Part shown: positions 6,242 through 29,606 of the stretch, piece after piece
Layout: the number at the start of each line of letters is the position of its first letter
Position numbering within the stretch: position 1 is the first letter of the stretch
NCBI GenBank assembly: GCA_040384705.1
Contig: JAZKIU010000001.1
Span: forward strand, 542,053 to 606,052
Direction: 5' to 3'
DNA length: 64,000 nt
Origin: Patescibacteria group bacterium
Lineage (GTDB): Bacteria; Patescibacteriota; Minisyncoccia; Phycocordibacterales; Phycocordibacteraceae
Program-made: the position numbers and the translations under genes
The notes under the pieces: model-generated
What the model was told of the DNA's origin: nothing
Seen by the model: only the letters and a program-made list of their open reading frames with translations
Databases searched by the model: none

Positions 6242-7396
6242 ATGACCGAGATAACGCTCCTTCTCGTACACGTAAGCGCGCTTGCGATAACGCTTCTATT
6301 CCTCTTGGGAGCGTGGGAGGTGCTGCGTTCCGATAACCTCAAGGCGCGTGTCCGGGCGGTGCTCGATGCGCTCGGCCTCAAGCGTGTGGACCATAACCCG
6401 ATACTCTCGCGTACGAACTACGCATGGGAAGCGGAAGCGGTAATGAATCCGGCCGCGGTCGAGGTCGGTGACCGTACGCATCTCTTCTATCGCGCTATCG
6501 GGAACGATGGCGTGTCCCGCATTGGCTATGCATCGTCTGGAAACGGAACGCATTTCGATGAGCGACTCCCCTATCCCGTGTTCGCGCTCACTAATGCGCA
6601 GAGGCAACCGGCAAGCGCTCGCTCTAGGATGGAAAAGGAACATCCGGAGCTCGTAGCGTCGGGCGGCAGCTGGGCTGGGTGCGAGGATCCACGGGCCGTG
6701 GTCATCGAAGACCGCGTCTACCTCTCTTTCAACGCGTTCTCCGATTGGGGTTCGCTTCGTATAGGCGTGACATCCCTTTCGCTTCCCGACCTCGCAGCGA
6801 AGCGATGGAACTGGAAGCGACCCGTCTTCCTGTCTCCACCTAATACCGTGCAGAAGAATTGGGTCCTGTTCCCGAAGAAGATAAACGGGAAATTCGCGAT
6901 GTTCCAGGGATTGGAATTCCAGAACCGCGATAAAGCGCAGATAGCATATCTCGATACGCTCGACCGCGAGCCAAACGAGTATCTCGATAGCGACGCACGC
7001 TTCAGGAACAACGAATCCTATTCGACCGTATGGGACAGCCGTATACGCGGCGCAGCTACCCCTCCTATCGAGACGCCGCATGGTTGGCTCACCCTCTACC
7101 ACGCGAACGATGCGCGCGAACCAGAGCGCTATAAGATAGGCGCGATGCTGCTCGACCTTCTCGATCCTTCTAAGGTGCTGCTGCGCTCTCCGGCACCCAT
7201 ACTCGAGCCGGATGCGCACTACGAGAACGATGGTAAGCCAGGCATCGTGTACGCGTGCGGGGCGACGGTGCGCGATGGCCAGCTCCGCGTGTATTACGGC
7301 GGCGGCGACAAGACGGTCTGCACCGCCTCCACCCCCCTCGCTTCTTTCATGAAGACGCTTCTAGCTAATAAAACGCCACGACTGGCGCTCGCATAG
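6242..7396 (+). CDS. Glycoside hydrolase family 130 (DUF377) beta-mannoside phosphorylase-like, with N-terminal membrane anchor
   Basis: Hallmark GCEDPR motif, HLFYRAIG..IGYA and YHANDA motifs. N-terminal TM helix. Confidence 0.85.
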   Translation: MTEITLLLVHVSALAITLLFLLGAWEVLRSDNLKARVRAVLDALGLKRVDHNPILSRTNYAWEAEAVMNPAAVEVGDRTHLFYRAIGNDGVSRIGYASSGNGTHFDERLPYPVFALTNAQRQPASARSRMEKEHPELVASGGSWAGCEDPRAVVIEDRVYLSFNAFSDWGSLRIGVTSLSLPDLAAKRWNWKRPVFLSPPNTVQKNWVLFPKKINGKFAMFQGLEFQNRDKAQIAYLDTLDREPNEYLDSDARFRNNESYSTVWDSRIRGAATPPIETPHGWLTLYHANDAREPERYKIGAMLLDLLDPSKVLLRSPAPILEPDAHYENDGKPGIVYACGATVRDGQLRVYYGGGDKTVCTASTPLASFMKTLLANKTPRLALA

Positions 7397-7403
7397 ATTC
7401 CGT

Positions 7404-9329
7404 ATGCTCATCGTCAAACGCTCACCGAGCAATCCGCTCATCATCCCGTCCCGCGCCCGCTCCTTCGAGGCGGTCGGTACCTGCAATCCGTCCGTGGTAC
7501 GTAAGGATGGCGTGACCCACCTGTTCTACCGCGCGTTCGCGGAGCCCGATGCGCTCCTTACCCCCGACCGAGGTTTCTCCACCATTGGCTATGCAAAGAG
7601 CAGGAGCGAGGATTCTTTCGATGAGCATGCGCAAGTCATCTCCCCCACCGAGGAGTGGGAGAAGTATGGGTGCGAGGACCCGCGAGCGACCTGTTTCGAA
7701 GGCAAATGGTACGTCTTCTATACCGCGCTCGGTGGCTACCCGTTCGGTCCCGACAATATCAAGGTTGCGGTCGCTATCGGCGACAGGCCTGAGGCGCTCA
7801 CCGAGAAGCATCTCATCACGCCCTTCAATGCCAAGGCAGCGACGCTCTTCCCGGAGCGCGTGAATGGCGAGGTCGTCCTTCTCCTCACCGCGCACACCGA
7901 CTTCACGGAAGCAAACCCACGCCCGACTATCGGTATCGCGCGCGCCAAGGAAGTCGCTGAGTTCTTCGACCCTGCGTTCTGGGATAGATGGCACAAGGAC
8001 ATCGCAGAACACGCCATACCTGACGTCAGGCGTGCTGACACCGAGCACATGGAGGTGGCGGCGACGCCAGTGCGCATCAAGGAGGGATGGCTCCTTGTCT
8101 ATTCCCACATCCAGGATTATTACGATGAACCGAACCGTATATTCGGCGTCGAAGCGCTCGTGCTCGATGCGAATGACCCGAGGAGAATACTGATGAAGAC
8201 CGCATACCCGTTCATGGTGCCGGAGGAATCCTATGAGCGGTACGGGCTCGTCACGAATGTCGTATTCCCTACCGGCGTCTGTATCGAGGGCGACACGCTC
8301 CACATCTACTACGGCGCAGCCGACACTTCCTGCGCTATGGCGTCCTTATCACTTCCGCACCTTCTCTCGACGATGAGCGAGGAATCGCGCGCCGCATTCA
8401 TGCAGCGACTACCGGAGAACCCGATCATGAGCCCTATCGAGGAGCATGGATGGGAGTCCCGTTCAGTATCGAATGCCGCTGCCATAGATCTCGACGGGTC
8501 GGTACACCTCGTATATCGCGCGATGGGGGCGGATAACACATCGGTTATGGGATATGCGCGTCTTGAAGACGGGTTGCATATAGATGAGCGTCTTGAGGAG
8601 CCCGTGTACGCACCGAGACATGAGTCGGAACAGAAGCAGGGCAAGCCCGATGGAAATTCCGGAACCGAAGACCCGCGCCTTACGCTCATCGATGGCGTGC
8701 TCACGCTCGCATACACCGCGTACGATGGCGTGCACGAGCCACGCGGTGCGATATCGACTATCAGTCCTGAGGATTTCGTCGCGAAGAACTTCAACTGGTC
8801 GCCTCCAGTCTTGGTGACACCAGCTCGGGTCGGCGATAAGGATGTGTGCATATTCCCTGAGCGTATCGATGGGAAGATAGTCGTCATCCATCGTATTGAT
8901 CCGGATATCTGTGTTGAGCGCTTTGATTCCCTCGAGCAGATGGAGACTATCGAGCGCTCGGTGGAGATAATGGGGCCCCGAAGCGGGATGTGGGATGACA
9001 TCAAGGTGGGTGCTGCGGGTCCCCCTATCAAAGTGAGCGAGGGGTGGCTGTTCATCTACCACGGCGTGGGGAGCGACAAGGTGTATCGCCTTGGTGCGAC
9101 GCTTCTGAGCGAGGACGCGAGTACCGTCATCGCACGCACCGTAGCTCCGATACTCGAGCCGGTGCCGGAATGGGAGCGCGTCGGCATGGTGAACAACGTG
9201 GTCTTCTCGTGCGGGGCCGTTGTGCGTGGCGATACCCTCATCATCTATTACGGTGGTGCGGATACAAGGATAGGCATCGCTACCCTCTCCGTGAAAGAAC
9301 TTATGAGCCGTCTCCTCCCTTCCCTATGA
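7404..9329 (+). CDS. Tandem double GH130 (DUF377) glycoside phosphorylase/hydrolase fusion
   Basis: Two complete GH130 modules (GCEDPRATCF.. and GTEDPRLTLIDG..), each with HLxYRA and five-bladed beta-propeller signature motifs. Confidence 0.85.
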   Translation: MLIVKRSPSNPLIIPSRARSFEAVGTCNPSVVRKDGVTHLFYRAFAEPDALLTPDRGFSTIGYAKSRSEDSFDEHAQVISPTEEWEKYGCEDPRATCFEGKWYVFYTALGGYPFGPDNIKVAVAIGDRPEALTEKHLITPFNAKAATLFPERVNGEVVLLLTAHTDFTEANPRPTIGIARAKEVAEFFDPAFWDRWHKDIAEHAIPDVRRADTEHMEVAATPVRIKEGWLLVYSHIQDYYDEPNRIFGVEALVLDANDPRRILMKTAYPFMVPEESYERYGLVTNVVFPTGVCIEGDTLHIYYGAADTSCAMASLSLPHLLSTMSEESRAAFMQRLPENPIMSPIEEHGWESRSVSNAAAIDLDGSVHLVYRAMGADNTSVMGYARLEDGLHIDERLEEPVYAPRHESEQKQGKPDGNSGTEDPRLTLIDGVLTLAYTAYDGVHEPRGAISTISPEDFVAKNFNWSPPVLVTPARVGDKDVCIFPERIDGKIVVIHRIDPDICVERFDSLEQMETIERSVEIMGPRSGMWDDIKVGAAGPPIKVSEGWLFIYHGVGSDKVYRLGATLLSEDASTVIARTVAPILEPVPEWERVGMVNNVVFSCGAVVRGDTLIIYYGGADTRIGIATLSVKELMSRLLPSL

Positions 9330-10075
9330 TTCCTTCCGTCGTCATGTTCGATATAGATAAGACGCTTGCGAGAAGCAAGTCGGATATAGAGCCATTGATG
9401 AGCGAAGCGCTCGCGCGCCTCTTGATAGCGACGAAGGTCGGCATCATCTCGGGCGGCAAGCTCGAGCAGTTCATGAAGCAGGTGGTCGGCAAGCTTCCGC
9501 CTGGTACTCCCTTGTTCAACCTGTATCTGCTGCCAACTTCGGGCGGCGCGCTCTACGAATACCGCAGCGCATGGATGCCGATATACCAGGAACTGCTTGA
9601 GGCCGACGAGGTCGAGAGAATACAGGCAGCGATGGAGGAGGTCATCGATACGTGCAGCGTCATTGATCGCTCCCACCCGCCGTACGGCGACCGTATCGAG
9701 GTGCGTGGTCCGCAAGTGACGCTTTCGGCGCTCGGGCAGCAGGCGCCCGTTAAGGAGAAGGAAGCGTGGGACCCGGTGGGCACCAAGCGCGAGATACTGC
9801 GCGCAGCGCTTGCGAAGCGTCTTCCGGAGTTCGATGTGAAGCGCGGGGGATCTACCTCCATAGACGTCACGAAGCGAGGCGTGAACAAGGCGTTCGGGGT
9901 ACGGAAGCTTAGCGAGCACCTTTCAATCCCTGTAGGGACGATGCTCTATGTAGGCGATGCGCTCGCTCCGGGCGGTAACGACGAAGTAGTGAAGGAGACG
10001 GGCATTCCCACGCGCTCCGTGCTCGATCCTGACGAGACGCTTCTCGTGATCGAAGGACTTCTGAAGGGCGCCTGA
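9326..10075 (+). CDS. Eukaryotic-type phosphomannomutase (HAD-IIB, PMM family)
   Basis: FDIDKTL...KVGIISGGKLEQF and YVGDALAPGGNDEVV...VLDPDETL align closely with PMM2 (FDVDGTLT...KIGVVGGSDFEKV; FFGDKTMPGGNDHEIF). ATGA overlap with the preceding gene. Confidence 0.8.
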   Translation: MIPSVVMFDIDKTLARSKSDIEPLMSEALARLLIATKVGIISGGKLEQFMKQVVGKLPPGTPLFNLYLLPTSGGALYEYRSAWMPIYQELLEADEVERIQAAMEEVIDTCSVIDRSHPPYGDRIEVRGPQVTLSALGQQAPVKEKEAWDPVGTKREILRAALAKRLPEFDVKRGGSTSIDVTKRGVNKAFGVRKLSEHLSIPVGTMLYVGDALAPGGNDEVVKETGIPTRSVLDPDETLLVIEGLLKGA

Positions 10076-10101: not shown

Positions 10102-11091
10102 ATGCGCTATTTCCTCATTCCCACCGTCGTCTCTTCGCTCATCATGCTCGGCATCTTGCTGTGGCTCGGGCCCGTCGCGTTCGTGACCGCGCTTCTTCTT
10201 ACCGTGCTCGAGGTCACGCTTTCGTTCGATAACGCGGTGGTGAACGCCCGCGTGCTCATGCAGATGAGCGAGAAGTGGCAGCAGCGCTTCCTCACCTGGG
10301 GCATCCTCATCGCGGTCTTCGGCACCCGCCTCGTGCTTCCCATCCTCATCGTGAGCGTTTCGGTGTGGAGTTCGCCCTGGCTCGTCGCGCAGCTTGCGGC
10401 GTTCCATCCTGAGGAATACGGGCACCTGCTCGAGGGCGCCAAGCACGGCATCTATGCCTTCGGCGCTGCGTTCCTCCTCATGGTGTCGCTCAAGTACTTC
10501 TTCGACGAATCGAAGGAGGTGCACTGGATAGGTATCATCGAGAGGAACCTATCAAAGCTCGGACGTATCGAGGCGCTTGAGATAGGGGTCGCGCTGGTGA
10601 CGCTCGTGGGGCTTTCCTTTCTCGTCCCGAACGAGCAGGCCATCGTGCTCTCAGCCGGTATCATCGGCATCATCCTGTTCATATTCATGCAGGGACTCGC
10701 GAGCTCGTTCTCGGCGACCATGACTAATACTGCGGCGAGCGGGCTTGCGCTCTTCCTGTACCTGAACGTGCTCGACTCCGCGTTCTCGCTTGATAGCGTG
10801 GTGGGCGCGTTCGCGCTCTCGACCTCCATTCCTATCATCGTGGCAGGTCTTGGTATCGGTGCATGGTACGTCAGGAGCATGACCATCTACTTCGTGAAGA
10901 AGAATACGCTCGATACGCTCGTATACCTTGAGCATGGCGCGCACTGGGCGATCTTCGGTCTCGCGGCTTCCATGTTCGCAGGGCTTCTCTTCGAAGTTCC
11001 GGAGATAATCACGGGCGGTATCGGTCTCGCGTTCGTTGCAGCTGCGTACTACTCATCGCTGAGGCTTCGGAAGCATACGAAGACGGCATAG
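10102..11091 (+). CDS. DUF475-family integral membrane protein
   Basis: LEVTLSFDNAVVNA motif and about 8 TM helices. Confidence 0.7.
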   Translation: MRYFLIPTVVSSLIMLGILLWLGPVAFVTALLLTVLEVTLSFDNAVVNARVLMQMSEKWQQRFLTWGILIAVFGTRLVLPILIVSVSVWSSPWLVAQLAAFHPEEYGHLLEGAKHGIYAFGAAFLLMVSLKYFFDESKEVHWIGIIERNLSKLGRIEALEIGVALVTLVGLSFLVPNEQAIVLSAGIIGIILFIFMQGLASSFSATMTNTAASGLALFLYLNVLDSAFSLDSVVGAFALSTSIPIIVAGLGIGAWYVRSMTIYFVKKNTLDTLVYLEHGAHWAIFGLAASMFAGLLFEVPEIITGGIGLAFVAAAYYSSLRLRKHTKTA

Positions 11092-11194
11092 CCCTCGATT
11101 GTGAGGGCTTGACATATTTGAGTATATATGTATATAATACACCCGAATGTACGGGCGTCCTGCCCTTTGATTTGACTCCCGGAAGGAGAAAAAC

Positions 11195-11524
11195 ATGAAG
11201 CTTTTCGCTACCCTCGCGACCTGCCTGTCGCTCGCCGCTAGCCCGGCGTTTGCGCAGTCGACCAGCCCCGGCGCGTTCCCGCCGATGACGCCGTCCGCGG
11301 CGGTCATGGCCTCGCCGTGCGACAAATTGCTCACCTGGCGCCTGCAGCTCTACAGCGACGAGCTCGTGATCCGGGACTTGGAATCCCGGATGAAGCAGAC
11401 GCCCAATGTCTCCCAATCCATGTGGGACAGCCTGACCGAGATCAAGAAGAATATCATGGCGAGCAAGGCGAATCAGACCCAGCTCGAGAAGTACTGCGCG
11501 ATCGCTGCGCGCCTTCCGCGCTGA
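11195..11524 (+). CDS. Small secreted hypothetical protein (signal peptide)
   Basis: N-terminal MKLFATLATCLSLAASPAFAQ signal peptide, GGAAGGAG RBS, followed by a strong terminator. Confidence 0.6.
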   Translation: MKLFATLATCLSLAASPAFAQSTSPGAFPPMTPSAAVMASPCDKLLTWRLQLYSDELVIRDLESRMKQTPNVSQSMWDSLTEIKKNIMASKANQTQLEKYCAIAARLPR

Positions 11525-11630: not shown

Positions 11631-13286
11631 ATGGATATTACTGCGAGACTCGCAGGCGTGATGAAGGGCGACCTAGCCACCGACAGCGAGACGCTCGCGA
11701 AAATGTCGCGCGATACGAGCGTCTTCGAACGTACGCCGTCCTTGGTGGTGTACCCGAAGGATACGCAGGATGTCTCCGTACTCGTGAAGACTATCGCTAG
11801 TGCAAAAGCTGCAGGCGACGATGTGTCAGTCACCGCACGCTCAGCGGGCACCGATATGTCAGGCGGTCCCCTCACTGACTCTGTAGTCGCTGTGTTCACG
11901 AAATACATGAACAAGGTGCATGAGGTCGCTGACGGCTATGCAGTAGCCGAGCCAGGCGTCTACTACCGCGACTTTGAGCGCGAGACGCGCAAGGTGAATA
12001 ACCAGCTGCTTCCCTCGTATCCGGCTTCGCGCGAGCTCGCGGCGCTCGGCGGGATAGTGAACAACGACTCAGGCGGCGAGCGCACGCTCGAATACGGCAA
12101 GACCCATGACTATGTCGAGGAGCTCGAAGTGGTGCTTTCTGATGGCTCTATAACCACCCTCAAAGCACTTACACCCACCGAGCTCGATGGAAAGCGTGCG
12201 CTCCATGGTCTCGAGGGCGATATATACCGGAAGATGAGTGCGCTCATCATGGATAATCTTGATGCGATACGGGATGCGAAGCCGAAGGTCTCCAAGAACT
12301 CTGCTGGGTACGCGCTCTGGGACGTGCTCGATAGCAAGCACGGTACTTTCAATCTCGCGAAGCTCATCACGGGCGCGCAGGGCACGCTCGCGCTCACGAC
12401 CAAGATGAAGCTACGACTCGTGAAGGAGCAGGGGTATCGCGCCATGCTCGTCGTATTCCTGAAGGATATCGACCACCTTCCGGAGATAGTGCATAAGGTA
12501 CTTCCGTATAACCCGGAGTCGTTCGAGAGCTACGACGACCAGACATTCAAGCTCGCCATCAAGTTCCTTCCGCAGATGCTTTCGCAGATGGGGCTCATGC
12601 GTGCTATACGGCTCGGGTTCTCCTTCCTACCGGAGGTCGGCATGGCAGCACGGGGCGGTATACCGAAGCTCATACTCATGGCCGAGTTCTCCGAGGATAC
12701 GCACGAGGAAGCGCTCAAGAAAGCGAAGCAGGCGCAAGAAGCTATTTCCCATCTGGGGGTTGTATCGAGCATAAAGGAGGACGAGAAGGCCGCGGAGAAG
12801 TATTGGATAGTGCGCAGGGAGAGCTTCGCGCTCCTGCGGAAGAACTCGCACGGCCTCTACGCATCCCCATTCATCGACGACTTCGTGGTGCCGGTGGATT
12901 CATATCCAACGTTCATGCCAGAACTGAACGCGCTTCTCGCCGAATATAAGGATAAGTTCATCTATACCATCGCTGGCCACATCGGTAACGGTAATTTCCA
13001 TATTATTCCGCTCATGGATCTCACGAAGGAGGAATCGAGGAAGACTATCCTCGAGCTGTCGCCACGCGTCTATGAGCTCGTTATCAAGTACGGTGGCACG
13101 ACCACAGGAGAACACAACGATGGCATCATCCGCACGCCGTACCTCCCTATGCTCTTTGGCGAGAAAGTAGTGGCGCTCTTCGCAGAGACCAAGCGCATAT
13201 TCGATCCGAACAATATCTTCAATCCAGGCAAAAAGGTCGGTGGTACCTTCGAGGATATCGAGCGGTCGATACTTACGAGCCTCTAA
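11631..13286 (+). CDS. FAD-linked oxidase (GlcD / D-lactate dehydrogenase family, PCMH-type FAD-binding domain)
   Basis: About 550 aa. N-terminal FAD_binding_4-like region (VVYPKDTQDVSVLVKTA...VTARSAGTDMSGG) and C-terminal FAD-oxidase_C features (HIGNGNFH, GGTTTGEHNDG). Confidence 0.85.
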   Translation: MDITARLAGVMKGDLATDSETLAKMSRDTSVFERTPSLVVYPKDTQDVSVLVKTIASAKAAGDDVSVTARSAGTDMSGGPLTDSVVAVFTKYMNKVHEVADGYAVAEPGVYYRDFERETRKVNNQLLPSYPASRELAALGGIVNNDSGGERTLEYGKTHDYVEELEVVLSDGSITTLKALTPTELDGKRALHGLEGDIYRKMSALIMDNLDAIRDAKPKVSKNSAGYALWDVLDSKHGTFNLAKLITGAQGTLALTTKMKLRLVKEQGYRAMLVVFLKDIDHLPEIVHKVLPYNPESFESYDDQTFKLAIKFLPQMLSQMGLMRAIRLGFSFLPEVGMAARGGIPKLILMAEFSEDTHEEALKKAKQAQEAISHLGVVSSIKEDEKAAEKYWIVRRESFALLRKNSHGLYASPFIDDFVVPVDSYPTFMPELNALLAEYKDKFIYTIAGHIGNGNFHIIPLMDLTKEESRKTILELSPRVYELVIKYGGTTTGEHNDGIIRTPYLPMLFGEKVVALFAETKRIFDPNNIFNPGKKVGGTFEDIERSILTSL

Positions 13287-13309
13287 CTGCCTCGTGATAA
13301 AGTACGGAC

Positions 13310-14041
13310 ATGAGCGAAGAATTCCTGGCGCACGAGGCGCTCGTCCAACAATTGAACGACCCTGCGCAGCGTGCAGCGTACGCTAAGCCGTATGACGGAT
13401 ACAAGGTCGGCTGGGTAGCGTCCATGCTCGGCTGGCTGCTCGTCAGTTCGGGCACGCTCGTATACGGCAAGAAGCCATCCTATGCAAAATTCAAGGCAAT
13501 CGAGGTCATCGCCCGCATTCCTTACCAATCGTGGGAAGTCGCTACCTATACTCTCCTGACTGCGCTCTATAAGAACGAGAAGCGCGCCATCGAGCTCGCG
13601 AAGACAAGCACCTTCAGCCGCTTCGCCCAGGACAACGAAACAATGCACGTCGTCGTGCTCTCGCAGATGGTATGCAAGATGAAGGCGCAGCGGTTCTTCA
13701 AGCACACATTCATCCCGCTCCTGTTCGCCTTCTTCTACTTCTGGACCATCTATCTCCTCTATATCGTGTACCGAAAGGCGGCGCTCGAGCTGAACTACAT
13801 TTTCGAGAACCATGCGTACCATCAATACTCGGAATTCCTGGAGCTCTATGGCGAGGAGATGAAGCACCGCGTCTGTATGTACGAGTTCCTCTCCTTCTAC
13901 GGCCGCAATGTGGTCACTGAATACGAGTTCTTCGAGTCGGTCAGGAACGATGAGCTCATCCACCGCAATATGACTATTCGGGAGCTCGAAGCAAGGGGTA
14001 TAAGCTGCGTTCCTAAGGAAGGGGGCTCCATCGCATACTAA
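13310..14041 (+). CDS. Alternative oxidase-like (AOX/PTOX family) membrane-associated diiron-carboxylate protein
   Basis: Four iron-ligand motifs in AOX order and spacing: IEVIARIP (cf. LETVAGVP), DNETMH (NERMH), FENHAYHQYSEF (LEEEAxxTYT), RNDELIHRN (RADEAHHRD). Hydrophobic helices lie between motifs 2 and 3. Confidence 0.6.
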   Translation: MSEEFLAHEALVQQLNDPAQRAAYAKPYDGYKVGWVASMLGWLLVSSGTLVYGKKPSYAKFKAIEVIARIPYQSWEVATYTLLTALYKNEKRAIELAKTSTFSRFAQDNETMHVVVLSQMVCKMKAQRFFKHTFIPLLFAFFYFWTIYLLYIVYRKAALELNYIFENHAYHQYSEFLELYGEEMKHRVCMYEFLSFYGRNVVTEYEFFESVRNDELIHRNMTIRELEARGISCVPKEGGSIAY

Positions 14042-14186
14042 TCCCCATACGACGCTTCCTACCCTTGCGCTTCCATGAGGTTCGTAGCATAGTGGGAATA
14101 ACTCGCAGGTGAGCGAAGCTTCGCGTGGCGTATGCGCCCCTCCAAGTGTTCAGTATCGGCGAGGTTATACGTATTTTTCTAGCCAC

Positions 14187-14555
14187 ATGGCATCAAACAA
14201 GCTCTATGTCGGCGGTATCCCATACCGCACGACCGAGGATGAGCTTCGCACCGCTTTCGAGGAAGCAGGCGAGGTAACGTCCGTCAGCATTATCAGCGAT
14301 CGCATGACCGGCCGCTCGCGCGGATTCGGTTTCGTCGAGATGGTAGACGAGGCTCAGGCCCAGGCTGCTATCGACCGTTGGGACGGCAAGGAAATGGACG
14401 GGCGCATGCTCTCCGTTTCCATGGCGCGCCCGCAGGGTGATCGTCCTCCTCGCGAGGGCGGTGCAGGCGGTGCTCGTGGCGGCGGCTTCGGCGGTGGAAA
14501 CCGTGGAGGCTTCGGCGGCGGCAACGATCGCGGTGGCTACGGCGGAGGTTACTAA
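14187..14555 (+). CDS. Glycine-rich RNA-binding protein (RRM domain)
   Basis: RNP-2 LYVGGI and RNP-1 RGFGFVEM motifs, C-terminal GGFGGG repeats. ATG at 14187. Confidence 0.85.
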   Translation: MASNKLYVGGIPYRTTEDELRTAFEEAGEVTSVSIISDRMTGRSRGFGFVEMVDEAQAQAAIDRWDGKEMDGRMLSVSMARPQGDRPPREGGAGGARGGGFGGGNRGGFGGGNDRGGYGGGY

Positions 14556-14568
14556 TCTCCCCTTACAG

Positions 14569-14604
14569 AAAAGGCCCGGACAATTTGTCCGGGCCTTTTC
14601 TTTT
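14569..14604. terminator. Bidirectional intrinsic terminator (AAGGCCCGGAC-aattt-GTCCGGGCCTT flanked by A-run/T-run)
   Basis: Perfect 11-bp stem between convergent genes. Confidence 0.8.
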
Positions 14605-19317: not shown

Positions 19318-19432
19318 GGCATCCTCCCGGAAGCGTTTGTCTGGGGAGAGGTTAACAATATTTTGCATATTTGTCAATGCCTTCCCTCCCTCTGCAGCGG
19401 GGAGGTTCTGAAGGGGATGGTAAGATTTGGAT

Positions 19433-20119
19433 ATGGAATCATCGTCGAGGAGCGTCTGGCTTATCCCCGGAGCCATCATAGTCGCGGGGCTCATCCTCGC
19501 CATCGCGATATTCGTCATCCGGACGACGAGCGCTAAGATCCCTGAATCAGCGAAGCCTGACGCCGTCCCGGCGGTTACGCCGACCGACCATATCATCGGG
19601 AACCCTGAGGCGCCCGTCGTTATCGTGGAGTACTCCGATATCGATTCGGACGACGGGAAGAACTTCCACGCCGCGCTGCAGCAGCTCATGACGGAATACG
19701 CAGCGGGAGGCCAGGTAGCCTGGGTGTACCGCCACCTCCCTCTTACGACCATGCATGCATACGCGCAGCGGCACGCGGAAGCGTCGGAGTGCGTCGCTTC
19801 CCTTTCGAGCCCCGAAGGGTTCTGGCGGTTCATCGACCAGGCGCATGCTATAGCATCGGGTTCCGCCGAGTTCAATCCGAAGAACTATCCAGTGGTACTC
19901 ACCTCGCTCGGTATACCGCAGGAAGGGTTCGACCAGTGCATGACGTCCGGGAAGTTCTCGAGCAAGGTCCGCAGCCAGGCGCACGACGCGCTCGGGGCCG
20001 GAGCCGAGGGGGCGCCGTTCACGGTGGTATTCATTGAGGGCCAGGAGCCGGTGGCGATAAACGGGGCGCTCCCGTATACGAGCTTGAAGGAGCTAGTTGA
20101 ACGTTCTATGGGCAGATAG
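19433..20119 (+). CDS. DsbA-like thioredoxin-fold protein with N-terminal TM anchor, active-site CxxC replaced (DSDD)
   Basis: Architecture and spacing like BdbD/DsbA (VVIVEYSDID..., later APFTVVFIEG). The position of CPxC reads DSDD. Confidence 0.55.
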   Translation: MESSSRSVWLIPGAIIVAGLILAIAIFVIRTTSAKIPESAKPDAVPAVTPTDHIIGNPEAPVVIVEYSDIDSDDGKNFHAALQQLMTEYAAGGQVAWVYRHLPLTTMHAYAQRHAEASECVASLSSPEGFWRFIDQAHAIASGSAEFNPKNYPVVLTSLGIPQEGFDQCMTSGKFSSKVRSQAHDALGAGAEGAPFTVVFIEGQEPVAINGALPYTSLKELVERSMGR

Positions 20120-25887: not shown

Positions 25888-28605
25888 TTGATTGAAATAC
25901 TTATCAACACCTCTTTCAGTAAAGGGTATCATAACTATGATACCCTTTACTTTATGGAGGTCGTCGCTAAGCAATCATTCAAGGCAATTTATTTCCCTGA
26001 CATTAGGGAGCGGGATACGAAGTCCAAATCATTTACACTTGCCTTCCCGGAAAATGAGAAGAAGGTATACGAGACAATAAGGCACTTCTCAAGCCATGAG
26101 ATGAGGAAAGTTCTAGGAGTAAAGACTTTTTCTGATCTTGAAACGTATGCCACTAAGGCCGACTTGCCGGTAAATAAATTCTGTATTAATAAGCTTAAGT
26201 ATCAACTAGCAAGAGGCGTTAGCGCCGGCCAATTCCCTATTGACCCTGCCCATGTCACCTTCCAGGGCGCTAAGGATATGCCTCTGCAAAATTGGTATCC
26301 ATATCTTGAAGGTTACTCGCCGGACTTTGTTAAGCATATTATCGACACTCACGTTCATAAGTCTGCAAAGGTTATTTACGACCCCTTCTCGGGCACTGGA
26401 ACTACACCGATAGTTGCGTCTGCGCTCGGGTTCACGGCTCTGTATTCAGAAGTTAATCCTTTGCTTCAGTTCTTAACTAAAGTTAAGACAAAGGCGCGAA
26501 ATGCTCCGAACAGAAAGAAGCTTTTACGCCAACTTGAGGCAATTCTCCCTGATCTCAGAATAGAAATTCTTAAACATGACGAGGATCAGGAATTGAGGAA
26601 GACTTATGCAGACACCTTCGGAGAGAGTAAGTTCTTCTCTGAGAAGGTCTTTAGCCATGTTCTTAAGACAAGAACATACCTGAGTACTCTCTATTTTGAG
26701 GACATACTTCTATCCGAACTAGTAACAGTAGCGGTACTTTCCAGCCTAGTTGAGAACTCTTTTCTCAAGCGCCAGGGTGATCTTAGATTTAGACGCGGAA
26801 AGGAGCTCGATGACTTGAAGACGATTGACTTCTTTGAGAGCCTGACGACCCGACTGCAGCAAATGCTTAAGGACTTGGAGCAGATTAGCTCTAGCGATGC
26901 GCCTACATTAATAACTGAGGATGCCCGAAGTGTAGGTAAGCTTCCCTTTCTAGGAATAGACGCTGTCATCACGAGTCCACCCTATCTGAACGGAACAAAC
27001 TATTTCCGCAATACTAAGGTCGAACTCTGGTTCCTTGGGTACTTAAAGACGCAAGCAGATCTAACCAACTTCAGGAGATTGGCCGTTACGGCAGGTATTA
27101 ATGATGTATCTCTCAAAGCCGAGAAATCTGTACATAACCGGGAACTAAATACGCTACTTGAGACCTTGGAGAAGAAGGCCTATGACAAGCGGATACCAAA
27201 GATGGTCTATGACTACTTCGCGGATATGGAAACAATTTTTGGCGATTTGAGAGGACAGCTTAATAAGGATGCTGTACTTGCTATCGATCTTGGTGACTCT
27301 ATCTATGGGGGTGTTCATGTAAAAACGCATAACATACTGGTATCTGTATTGGAGAATATTGGCTACGTTTTTGAAAAGGAGATTGTTCTGAGAAAGCGAC
27401 AATCAAATAACGGTCAGGAGTTAAAGCAAGTCCTGCTTATATTTAGAAACCCAGATCGAATCCAGAAAGAAAAGATAAAGCCTGAATGGCAAAAAGACTG
27501 GAAGAATTTCAAGAAGAATATACCCCACCACCAAGGGGAAATGTCTAAGCGAAACTGGGGAGACCCAATCCATTCACTCTGTTCCTATCAAGGGAAGCTC
27601 AAGCCATCAATTGCTAGCCAACTAGTCTCAATATTTGTTCCTGAGAATGGGAAGATGCTCGATATTTTTGGAGGTGTTGGCACAATTCCGCTTGAGGCCT
27701 CGCTGCAAAACAAAAAATCATACTCCTTCGATATAAGCCCTACCGCCATAGCGATATCGAGAGCAAAGCTCAACCTTCCATCGGTAAAGAAGATATGGCA
27801 GATCGTTGCGGATTTGGATTCTTGGATTCAGAGTAAGAAGTTGTCACAGGACGAGATTCTCACGACAGCCAAGTTCGGAATGAATAAGACCATGAAGGAC
27901 TACTTTCATCCAAAGACGCTCGAGGAAATTACACTTGCAAGAAAGTATTTTGCTAAGGAGGGATACGCTACAACCGAGCATGCACTTGTAATGTCTGCTC
28001 TTATGCACATTCTGCATGGGAATCGACCTTATGCACTAAGCCGCCGTTCGCATGGGATAACTCCTTTCGCCCCTACTGGCGAATTTGAGTATAAGAGCCT
28101 GATAGAAAAGCTGACCGAGAAAGTTGATCGTACCTTGACCCATCTTCAGAGGGACACCTTTAGTCCGGGAGAAGTTTGTTTCCAAGATGCTACGAAGACA
28201 TGGCCAGCAGAAGTGCGCGATCTGGATGCGATCATTACCAGCCCTCCCTTCTTTGATAGCACCCGGTTCTATGCAGCAAACTGGATGCGTCTTTGGTTTG
28301 CTGGTTGGGATGCAGCGCACTTCAAGACTCAGCCAGTGAACTTCGTTGATGAGTTACAAAAAAAAGATTTATCCATCTACGACGGTATCTTTATGCAAGC
28401 ACGGGAACGCCTCAAGAAGGATGGGGTATTTGTACTACATCTCGGCAAAAGCCATAAGTGCGACATGGCAGATGCGCTATCAGGAAGAGCTGCTCGATGG
28501 TTCGAGGTATGCGATATCTTTGAGGAGAGTGTAGAAGATGGAGAGTCTCACGGTATCAAGGACCGCGGCTCGGTTACTAAGCACCAATACCTCGTACTAC
28601 GTTAG
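25888..28605 (+). CDS. Tandem double DNA methyltransferase (two SAM-MTase modules, each motif I DPFSGTGTT / DIFGGVGTI followed by SPPY / SPPF; N4-cytosine-type signature)
   Basis: Motif I at about aa 165 and about 585; motif IV ITSPPYLNG at about 355 and ITSPPFFDS at about 782. AT-rich codon usage unlike the flanks. Annotated start is TTG 25888, alternative ATG 25954. Confidence 0.85.
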   Translation: MIEILINTSFSKGYHNYDTLYFMEVVAKQSFKAIYFPDIRERDTKSKSFTLAFPENEKKVYETIRHFSSHEMRKVLGVKTFSDLETYATKADLPVNKFCINKLKYQLARGVSAGQFPIDPAHVTFQGAKDMPLQNWYPYLEGYSPDFVKHIIDTHVHKSAKVIYDPFSGTGTTPIVASALGFTALYSEVNPLLQFLTKVKTKARNAPNRKKLLRQLEAILPDLRIEILKHDEDQELRKTYADTFGESKFFSEKVFSHVLKTRTYLSTLYFEDILLSELVTVAVLSSLVENSFLKRQGDLRFRRGKELDDLKTIDFFESLTTRLQQMLKDLEQISSSDAPTLITEDARSVGKLPFLGIDAVITSPPYLNGTNYFRNTKVELWFLGYLKTQADLTNFRRLAVTAGINDVSLKAEKSVHNRELNTLLETLEKKAYDKRIPKMVYDYFADMETIFGDLRGQLNKDAVLAIDLGDSIYGGVHVKTHNILVSVLENIGYVFEKEIVLRKRQSNNGQELKQVLLIFRNPDRIQKEKIKPEWQKDWKNFKKNIPHHQGEMSKRNWGDPIHSLCSYQGKLKPSIASQLVSIFVPENGKMLDIFGGVGTIPLEASLQNKKSYSFDISPTAIAISRAKLNLPSVKKIWQIVADLDSWIQSKKLSQDEILTTAKFGMNKTMKDYFHPKTLEEITLARKYFAKEGYATTEHALVMSALMHILHGNRPYALSRRSHGITPFAPTGEFEYKSLIEKLTEKVDRTLTHLQRDTFSPGEVCFQDATKTWPAEVRDLDAIITSPPFFDSTRFYAANWMRLWFAGWDAAHFKTQPVNFVDELQKKDLSIYDGIFMQARERLKKDGVFVLHLGKSHKCDMADALSGRAARWFEVCDIFEESVEDGESHGIKDRGSVTKHQYLVLR

Positions 28606-29606
28606 ATATAGGCAAGTATCTTTCTATTTCCGGCTGACAGCTGGGATACGAGGTCGTAGTCTTCGAGAAGCTTCTTGAGCTCGTCGATGCGCTTAGCGAG
28701 ATCAGTACCGCCACGAACGGTGAGGAACCGTGTGACACAGGCATCAACGTCGATGTTTGCGTTTACAATAGGCATCTTACTTGCCATTAAGCCTAGGTCA
28801 GCACCTGTGATTCTAGCAAGCGCTATGAGTTCGTCGTTTGTATAGAAATCGCTCGGCCATCGATCGCTCTTATTACTATTCGCATCAGTTGAGAGCAGTG
28901 CAGCGTTCTCGTCCGTAAGTGGGTAGAGCCAACGGGACGGAAGAATATGATCAACTGCCCAGGATCTTCGATCCGCTAAGTCTAGAGACTTACCAGTCTT
29001 GAAGCACTTCCCTTCAAAACGTTCGAAAAGGGCCTTCAAATCGGGCTGCCTGTTCTCGCCTTGAAGGAGAAGTTCGGCGGTGCGCCGACGTATCGAAGAC
29101 TCATAGAGCTGCTCCTTGGTTCGCTTCGGATTAAGATCGGCATTGATAACGGCCTTACAGGCTCGGCACTCCATCTGTTTCTCCAATGGACCCCAACCAA
29201 CATGTTTACTGAAATCCCTGGCAGGCAGAATTCGGCCACAGGTCCCACACTGTTTCCAGTATGCTTCTCGCGTTTCAGTTGCTGTCCTGAAGAAAGCCAT
29301 CCAGAAACGTTGAGTTGGAAGATTGCCAGCAGCAGTTTGCTCAAGCTTCCAAGTAGTAAAGGGTAGGCCCTTCCCTTCCAAGTCCGTAAGCGGGAGAGAT
29401 GATCCTTTGGCATGCTCAAAACCGCACTTATTGCATACCCATGACTCTAATTCGTATGCTTCTGTTGGCCTAAGAAGCTGAGTGCCAAGGGGCACGGTAT
29501 TAGACGTTTGACAGCGCACACATACGAAATGTGCGAAGGCAGCGTGAATTGATACGCCCGAAACTCTGGCAATATTTGTCTTATTAGTTGTAGTTCGCCT
29601 AGCCAT
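28602..29606 (-). CDS. HNH-family endonuclease with two N-terminal zinc ribbons (candidate restriction endonuclease)
   Basis: CVRC..CNKCGFEH and CGTCGR..CRACK Cys4 ribbons. C-terminal AVDHILPSRW...NAALLSTDANSNK HNH (His-Asn-Asn/Lys) motif. Convergent with and overlapping the MTase by 4 bp. Confidence 0.75.
   Translation of the reverse strand: MARRTTTNKTNIARVSGVSIHAAFAHFVCVRCQTSNTVPLGTQLLRPTEAYELESWVCNKCGFEHAKGSSLPLTDLEGKGLPFTTWKLEQTAAGNLPTQRFWMAFFRTATETREAYWKQCGTCGRILPARDFSKHVGWGPLEKQMECRACKAVINADLNPKRTKEQLYESSIRRRTAELLLQGENRQPDLKALFERFEGKCFKTGKSLDLADRRSWAVDHILPSRWLYPLTDENAALLSTDANSNKSDRWPSDFYTNDELIALARITGADLGLMASKMPIVNANIDVDACVTRFLTVRGGTDLAKRIDELKKLLEDYDLVSQLSAGNRKILAYI

Follow-up and report, generated by a model that had tools for sequence, protein, structure and literature searches.

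Can a bacterium with a genome of only 640 kb, from a group widely described as obligate fermenters without oxygen reductases, encode a terminal oxidase? The question is raised by two genes in a 64,000-nucleotide stretch of a Patescibacteria group genome (contig JAZKIU010000001.1), the whole of which is called the window here. A 551-amino-acid (aa) open reading frame (ORF) occupies positions 11631-13286 and a 243-aa ORF positions 13310-14041, both on the forward strand and both closed by a TAA stop. An earlier, sequence-only reading had taken the first for a quinone-reducing dehydrogenase linked to flavin adenine dinucleotide (FAD) and the second for an alternative-oxidase-like diiron protein, the two forming a minimal two-component chain in a host with a reduced genome. 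The host is indeed such an organism, a member of the Patescibacteria, or candidate phyla radiation (CPR). Judged by its sequence, the 243-aa protein is a diiron protein of the superfamily of alternative oxidases (AOX) and plastid terminal oxidases (PTOX), and a divergent, PTOX-like member of it.

Family placement and diiron site of the 243-aa protein

The gene at 13310-14041 (+) is a candidate for a PTOX-like membrane-bound diiron oxidase on evidence from its ORF, Pfam, AlphaFold2, Foldseek and hhalign. Its product is 100% identical to the NCBI entry "hypothetical protein V4681_03370" of a Patescibacteria metagenome-assembled genome, and no NCBIfam model matches it. PF01786 (AOX), the profile that the sequence-only reading had named as the check on its assignment, is the sole Pfam match. 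It lies above the gathering threshold, marginally so (23.5 against 22.7 bits, E 4.8e-5, profile positions 53-210 of 216), and most homologs likewise carry it. Some database members bear the labels "alternative oxidase" or "ubiquinol oxidase", which is to be expected where Pfam draws no line between AOX and PTOX (PMC4909761).

The four iron-binding motifs of the superfamily (E, ExxH, E, ExxH) are all present and in order on the forward strand, as the sequence-only reading had it. Motif 1, FKAIEVIARIPY (13490-13525), supplies the ligand E65 (nt 13502), with the invariant K60 five residues before it. Motif 2, AQDNETMHVVV (13625-13657), supplies E110 and H113 in an NExxH arrangement, and motif 3, ELNYIFENHAYHQY (13787-13828, containing FENHAYHQY), supplies E166 together with Tyr173. 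Motif 4, RNDELIHRN (13943-13969), completes the site with E215 and H218 (DExxH). In an alignment of 26 homologs at 63-82% identity, all six ligands (E65, E110, H113, E166, E215, H218) are invariant, as are K60, Y173, D214 and several other residues; N109 is invariant or nearly so. The six ligands fall on the ligand columns of the PTOX and AOX profiles, far beyond chance (hhalign E 7.5e-23). Motif 1 aligns with LETIARVPYF of PTOX and LETVAGVPGM of the trypanosome alternative oxidase (TAO), and motif 3 is of the PTOX type, 'ExHA', not the AOX type, 'EEEA'. Y173, seven residues after the third Glu, aligns with Tyr220 of TAO (..EEEAVITY..) and with the PTOX Tyr (..E.HA..TY..), a position that is presumably catalytic, on established knowledge of TAO.

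Two hydrophobic helices accompany the site. The first (residues 33-53, 13406-13468, +), predicted to bind the membrane, stands in the AOX alpha1 position, with Kyte-Doolittle (KD) hydropathy up to 1.56 over a 19-residue window and a model helix at 35-52. The second (residues 129-155, 13694-13774, +) is aromatic-rich and stands in the AOX alpha4 position, with KD hydropathy up to 2.04 and a model helix at 129-153; it aligns in the profile alignment with the 'FFYYWI..LYM' helix of PTOX. Hydrophobic helices had been placed between motifs 2 and 3, which is right for residues 129-155 and wrong for residues 33-53, which precede motif 1. The AlphaFold2 model built from the alignment (pLDDT 84.6, pTM 0.85) has six long helices, and in this predicted structure a four-helix bundle with the two hydrophobic helices gives a TAO-like fold of the kind that defines the superfamily.

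Structure searches point the same way. Foldseek against the PDB returned trypanosome AOX for all of the top 10 matches (probability up to 1.0, TM ~0.54, 12-15% identity), and against viral models the only confident matches were PTOX-like, among them a cyanophage protein annotated as PTOX (TMt 0.64-0.69). In 50,697 phage genomes tblastn gave 7 weak matches, all on annotated PTOX genes; identity to cyanophage PTOX is 21-29%.

On which side of the superfamily does the protein lie? PTOX-type signatures (LE.IAR.PY, NE..H,.E.HA...Y,.DE..H) are found in the CPR clade and in every relative retrieved by profile from 1.8 billion representative proteins, according to a motif table of 90 sequences, whereas the TAO motifs differ (LETVAGVPGM, ENERMHL, LEEEA). 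In hhalign the CPR profile matches best an unnamed bacterial "intermediate" group (99.9%, E 3e-35), which is the closest relative of the CPR clade, and then PTOX-type sequences including cyanophage PTOX (99.5%, E 7.5e-23), with all four motifs aligned. Against four annotated proteobacterial AOX the match falls to 84.9% (E 6e-6) and covers motifs 2-4 only; PTOX against AOX, as a calibration, gives 98.6% (E 7e-16). Since the CPR profile matches PTOX better than AOX, the protein is assigned to the PTOX side. The description "alternative-oxidase-like" thus stands as to superfamily membership and needs correcting in that the protein is nearer PTOX than mitochondrial AOX.

Other placements were tried and set aside. 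COQ7 and MiaE give no Pfam match at E<=1, and Foldseek probabilities reach only 0.15-0.30 for COQ7 and at most 0.44 for ferritins. Both outcomes that the sequence-only reading had named as fatal to its assignment, membership in another diiron family and unconserved ligands, are contradicted by this lack of any COQ7 or MiaE match and by the invariance of the ligands. The signatures of AOX sensu stricto (LETVAGVPG / NERMHL / LEEEA / RADEAxHR) are absent, and phmmer and hmmsearch give no match to PDB AOX. PTOX proper was rejected as well: the host is a Patescibacterium, not an oxygenic phototroph or a phage, and the insertion between helices 5 and 6 is gapped, so the protein is filed as a separate PTOX-like clade.

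The CPR clade is tight, with only 14 representatives at 50% identity scoring below 1e-30, and it is widely distributed. The 243-aa protein has matches in more than 1,234 clusters at 90% identity, and a scan of one genome per GTDB species found it in at least 168 species loci. Nearly all taxon labels among the loci listed are Paceibacterota, Parcubacteria, Kaiserbacteria, Nomurabacteria, Wolfebacteria, Minisyncoccia or "Patescibacteria group". The clade is under strong purifying selection across these at least 168 species, nearly all labelled Patescibacteria and most of them Paceibacterota.

The FAD enzyme and its linkage to the diiron protein gene

Directly upstream lies the FAD-linked, GlcD-type dehydrogenase that had been recognized there. 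PF01565 (FAD_binding_4) covers residues 36-177 (nt 11736-12161, E 8e-26) and PF02913 (FAD-oxidase_C) residues 269-534 (nt 12435-13232, E 1e-43). The catalytic and metal-binding region (12975-13124, +), with GHIGNGNFH (H450, H457) and TGEHNDG (E494, H495), aligns with GHVGDGNFH...TGEHGIG of mouse D-lactate dehydrogenase 8jdc. The protein aligns colinearly with YdiJ over the N-terminal half (27-539 of 1018) and in part with GlcD, and its NCBIfam scores fall far under the equivalog cutoffs of both (244 against 1350 bits for YdiJ, 197 against 568 for GlcD). Among solved structures, glycolate oxidase, LctD, mitochondrial D-lactate dehydrogenase (LDHD) and D2HGDH are closest to the protein. Pfam and NCBIfam find neither an Fe-S/CCG half nor a Dld membrane domain, and no segment is hydrophobic (maximum KD 1.08). 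On its domain content, the product of this gene (11631-13286, +; GlcD/LDHD/YdiJ-N-like) is a soluble FAD-dependent D-2-hydroxyacid dehydrogenase of the D-lactate, D-2-hydroxyglutarate or glycolate type. The label "quinone-reducing" was an assumption of the sequence-only reading and is not established, since Fe-S, CCG, Dld membrane and hydrophobic modules are all missing.

The spacer between the two genes measures 23 nt (13287-13309, +) and holds no terminator. The first terminator-like site 3' of the AOX-like gene on the same strand is a strong intrinsic-terminator-like hairpin of 16 pairs followed by a T-run (14567-14601, +), after a gene for an RNA recognition motif (RRM) protein. Upstream, a promoter-like site, TTGACA-18-TATAAT (11109-11138, +), matches the sigma-70 consensus at 12 of 12 positions and precedes a small ORF and the FAD gene; this consensus scan found 1 such site against 1.8 expected in shuffles, and the site is only tentatively taken as the start of the transcription unit. 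Co-transcription of the FAD and AOX-like genes in this genome is likely from this layout. The RRM_1 RNA-binding protein, with a Gly/Arg-rich tail (14109-14555), lies directly 3' of the AOX-like gene, a position kept in more than 20 species. On the other side, a DUF475/TerC-family membrane protein (10102-11091) and then the small signal-peptide ORF (11195-11524) lie 5' of the FAD gene. An antisense 226-aa ORF (13283-13963, -) overlaps the AOX-like gene almost fully; antisense shadow ORFs of this kind are common in this GC-rich sequence, and in 11 related loci a naive caller that takes the longest ORF preferred them to the real AOX gene. Genes in the related loci were called by a heuristic, conservation-weighted ORF caller.

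Is the pairing meaningful beyond this genome? Two sets of loci bear on it: 80 species-level loci anchored on the AOX-like gene, with 10 kb taken to either side, and 80 metagenomic loci around orthologs of the FAD enzyme, 48 of which are informative. The FAD gene lies within two genes of the AOX-like gene, usually directly upstream, in about 35 of the 80 AOX-anchored loci, and is missing within 10 kb in about 45. Direct adjacency, with gaps of 23-60 nt, extends over about 20 related species, in which AOX identity falls as low as 61-63%. No other gene neighbours the AOX-like gene as often as that for the FAD enzyme, which stays beside it while genes further upstream change. In the basal locus L083 the order is AOX-FAD-TerC, with a 26-nt gap, instead of TerC-...-FAD-AOX; TerC thus adjoins the two genes even where the locus is rearranged.

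In a simple neighbour-joining tree of the FAD protein, nearly all AOX-adjacent copies fall in one clade, which points to a single ancestral juxtaposition, and the other large clade is never adjacent. Within the AOX-adjacent clade the two genes are direct neighbours in 18 of 27 loci and at most two genes apart in all 27. Unrelated pairs taken for comparison stay together in 17 of 17 (MTS-c9), 15 of 15 (c9-bPH) and 15 of 16 (bPH-HisRS) loci, and an opposite-strand gene stands between FAD and AOX in 6 of the 27. A search for proteins that join the AOX domain to a dehydrogenase turned up fusions to TPR repeats only. Where the FAD gene is absent, a search beside the AOX-like gene returned mannose-nucleotide genes, a response regulator, a LAGLIDADG endonuclease and a His-phosphatase, and no recurrent redox or stress partner. 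The two genes are not an obligate pair, and a dedicated two-component system is not demonstrated.

Proposed oxygen reduction and its possible electron source

What, then, would the diiron protein do? On balance, the reading favoured here is a PTOX-like, heme-free quinol:O2 oxidase that serves O2 scavenging and quinone re-oxidation, with the FAD enzyme as a possible donor and not an obligate partner; the sequence evidence makes this probable by a modest degree. By analogy with AOX and PTOX, the two hydrophobic helices would dock the protein monotopically on the cytoplasmic face of the membrane, where it would oxidise a membrane quinol and reduce O2 to water without proton pumping. Needing neither heme nor copper, it would be a genomically cheap terminal oxidase. 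Besides scavenging O2, it may re-oxidise a small pool of quinone on which dehydrogenases, DsbB-type thiol oxidases and similar enzymes depend. As quinone synthesis is not known in CPR bacteria, this quinone would probably be taken up from a host or the environment, and in this sublineage the probably co-transcribed FAD dehydrogenase may be one electron donor.

The surroundings of related genes favour an O2-handling role for the family. In the intermediate, non-CPR group (L170 3949-4833 and L175 5265-6104, AOX/PTOX-like genes with the motifs LELVARVPYQ / QQDNEQWHLLI / FEDHAEHEY), one gene is accompanied by a Fur-family regulator, three to four rubrerythrins, rubredoxin and MsrAB, and another by rubrerythrin, G6PD and SpoIIE/STAS. 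Annotated proteobacterial AOX genes adjoin globins and Rrf2 or Crp/Fnr regulators. It is these stress-island and globin or regulator contexts that argue for oxygen handling. Convergently (tail-to-tail) with the AOX-like gene, 2 species carry an operon of an ApbE flavin-transferase, an unannotated 205-aa membrane protein and an FNR-type (FAD_binding_6/NAD_binding_1) flavoprotein (L044 1528-3759; L046 758-3016), which could be another membrane electron-input module.

Could there be a quinone for such an oxidase to use? In other CPR bacteria, orthologs of the FAD enzyme are flanked by DsbB in 31 of 79 loci. DsbB is quinone-dependent in model bacteria, and its presence beside the FAD orthologs is thus a hint of some quinone in CPR membranes. 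Further neighbours of the orthologs outside the AOX-adjacent clade (L089-L168) are a DsbA-like protein, thioredoxin, FMN reductase and a VIT1 transporter, and a DoxX-like polytopic membrane protein lies immediately 3' of the ortholog in 18 of these loci. The surroundings of the FAD orthologs are a thiol/quinone-redox neighbourhood in organisms thought to be without quinones. DsbB, DoxX-like and FMN-reductase genes were found neither near AOX-like genes nor in the window. A DsbA-like thioredoxin (Thioredoxin_4/DSBA, 19427-20119, +) lies about 6 kb downstream of the pair, in the same relative position in 19 related loci, and no DsbB partner for it was seen in the window.

Several observations weigh against a quinol oxidase, and against the FAD enzyme as its donor. 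CPR bacteria have been reported to be without electron-transport chains (PMC7507113), and no quinone-biosynthesis, NDH-2 or other respiratory gene was found among the approximately 40 ORFs of the window, which covers about a tenth of the 640-kb genome. DsbB does not lie within 10 kb of any AOX-like gene. Only 5 of the 48 informative FAD-anchored loci have an AOX-like gene nearby, leaving 43 without, and the FAD-AOX linkage does not exceed background synteny. When the PDB was searched by sequence, neither the 243-aa protein alone nor its 26-sequence profile matched any AOX, the one match being a spurious kinesin (E 0.13); the clade is thus remote from characterised enzymes. Given the marginal Pfam score and the lack of a sequence match to TAO, its function could have diverged.

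If so, the diiron scaffold may have been re-purposed for an oxygenase or desaturase-type reaction, or for a reductase of some other oxidant, on a lipid, isoprenoid or hydrophobic substrate, as has happened in COQ7 and AcsF, related membrane diiron enzymes. The great distance of the clade from characterised enzymes (12-15% identity to TAO, 21-29% to cyanophage PTOX) would suit such a change, as would its own conserved N-terminal region, where H8, E9, R21 and Y24 are invariant, and Q172, which stands beside the active site where TAO and PTOX have Thr. In other lineages, moreover, the gene adjoins mannose-nucleotide and sugar-transport genes, not redox genes, and quinone synthesis is not known in the host (PMC7507113). 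Yet every element of the AOX/PTOX catalytic constellation is invariant, including the Tyr at +7 from the third Glu and the basic residue at -5 from the first. Profile comparison reveals no likeness to COQ7 or MiaE, and relatives lie in oxidative-stress islands. Such a re-purposing is judged quite unlikely.

The remaining alternatives bind the two genes more tightly than the favoured reading does. In the dedicated chain, electrons would run from D-lactate or another D-2-hydroxyacid through FAD and a membrane quinone to the diiron oxidase and O2, and the genes would be co-transcribed and interdependent. The shared strand, the 23-nt gap and the lack of a terminator invite this view, and so do the adjacency in about 20 species, the rank of the FAD gene as commonest neighbour, kept while upstream genes vary, and L083, where the genes remain adjacent in reversed order. 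The adjacency, however, goes back to essentially one ancestral event and is no better kept than that of unrelated pairs; an opposite-strand gene intervenes in 6 of 27 loci, and each gene mostly occurs without the other (43 of 48 FAD loci, about 45 of 80 AOX loci). Nor does the FAD enzyme have a membrane or Fe-S module for reaching a quinone, and its solved relatives, in part from established knowledge, use electron-transfer flavoprotein (ETF), cytochrome c or Fe-S partners. The minimal two-component chain of the sequence-only reading is left unsupported on the same grounds, its adjacency being confined to one sublineage and its 64-kb surroundings holding no quinone or respiratory genes; interdependence of the two enzymes is unlikely. 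Far more improbable still is a coupling that dispenses with quinone, in which the FAD dehydrogenase would dock on the diiron protein and pass electrons to it directly, the latter replacing the Fe-S/CCG half of YdiJ to make a water-forming D-2-hydroxyacid oxidase. The colinearity of the FAD protein with only the N-terminal half of YdiJ fits this idea, as does the identity of the next gene, which encodes a diiron and not an Fe-S protein, and no quinone genes are seen in the window. The AOX/PTOX family offers no precedent, though, no FAD-AOX fusions were found, and most AOX-like genes and FAD orthologs lie apart.

A PTOX-like quinol oxidase, with the FAD enzyme as one candidate donor, is the reading retained here. 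Its extension to the whole clade is put forward more tentatively: that a sizeable branch of the Patescibacteria (at least 168 species, mostly Paceibacterota) reduces O2 through a PTOX-like oxidase, fed by scavenged quinone or directly by flavoprotein dehydrogenases, is possible but rather doubtful.

Genomic setting and relation to known systems

The window is otherwise made up of housekeeping genes (rpoB/C, dnaG, sigma-70, dnaE, tRNA synthetases), the GH130 and PMM sugar genes and the DsbA-like thioredoxin. Just upstream of the locus (6242-10075) lies a mannoside-salvage cluster, composed of a GH130 mannoside phosphorylase, a 641-aa protein containing two GH130 domains and a PMM-like HAD phosphomannomutase. 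In other Paceibacterota the AOX-like gene adjoins split manC genes (NTP_transferase; MannoseP_isomer cupin) and a PQ-loop/SWEET-like small membrane protein, and mannose-related neighbours recur around AOX-like genes. Further downstream, a low-GC island (25888-29606, 44-50% GC against about 58-60% elsewhere) carries a 905-aa DNA methylase (N6_N4_Mtase) and a convergent 334-aa ORF with a weak Cas12f/TnpB-like TNB-domain match, and is probably a mobile or restriction-modification insertion.

How does an oxidase of this kind square with what has been written about CPR bacteria? Castelle 2017 described them as without respiratory capacity, except for one exceptional genome. Beam 2020 concluded that oxygen reductases were ancestrally absent, from a screen confined to heme-copper and bd oxidases (PMC7507113), and a 2025 survey of oxic adaptations and oxygen-related genes in groundwater CPR does not list the AOX/PTOX family (PMC12577380). 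In the open literature no paper was found that reports AOX- or PTOX-like genes from Patescibacteria, Parcubacteria or CPR; the protein family is already known, and its distinct CPR clade, in an unexpected host, appears to be undescribed. If a sizeable Patescibacteria branch does reduce O2 in this way, the 'ancestral absence of oxygen reductases' would be partly an artefact of screening for heme-copper and bd enzymes alone. An iron-only diiron oxidase would be the cheapest means of O2 removal for a 0.6-Mb genome, and would help explain how Paceibacteria thrive in oxic groundwater and soils. Cells could gain from O2 both redox balance and extra substrate-level ATP (lactate to pyruvate and acetate). 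The source of quinol in an organism not known to make quinones then becomes the question, one that bears on host dependence, on lipid and quinone scavenging and on cultivation strategies. For the family itself, the CPR clade and the bacterial group with rubrerythrin/Msr islands add a third deep branch to the AOX/PTOX tree.

Among known systems, PTOX (IMMUTANS and the cyanobacterial and cyanophage enzymes) is the nearest, sharing the four PTOX-type motifs and two hydrophobic helices in the same positions. The CPR protein differs in its low identity (21-29%), in a non-photosynthetic host with no known plastoquinone pathway, and in lacking the long insertion between helices 5 and 6. It also carries 'PYQ' and 'QDNET' variants, its N-terminal extension is conserved and peculiar to the clade, and the nearest relatives of its clade are the intermediate bacterial group, not PTOX proper. 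With AOX sensu stricto (mitochondrial, including TAO, PDB 3VV9/3VVA, and proteobacterial) it has in common PF01786, the six ligands, the Tyr, the overall fold and the monotopic membrane diiron architecture. With COQ7/Clk-1 (demethoxyubiquinone, or DMQ, hydroxylase), MiaE, rubrerythrin and ferritin it shares a four-helix-bundle diiron carboxylate scaffold of weak structural similarity.

The FAD enzyme has its own relatives in GlcD, LDHD, D2HGDH and the N-terminal half of YdiJ, in the VAO/PCMH superfamily, with which it shares both FAD domains, the catalytic H..H..E motif and colinearity over YdiJ 27-539. It differs from GlcD, YdiJ and Dld in the absence of the YdiJ Fe-S/CCG half, of GlcE/F partners, of ETF neighbours and of the membrane domain of E. 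coli Dld.

For function, the closest analogy may be respiration with borrowed cofactors. It is seen in fermentative bacteria that do not synthesise quinone or heme themselves, an example being the cytochrome bd activity that Streptococcus agalactiae or Lactococcus shows with exogenous heme and menaquinone. As in those bacteria, the CPR protein would be an oxidase, non-pumping or of low coupling, that removes O2 and balances redox. Unlike cytochrome bd, it would, as a diiron enzyme, need no heme, and the quinone would probably come from outside the cell.

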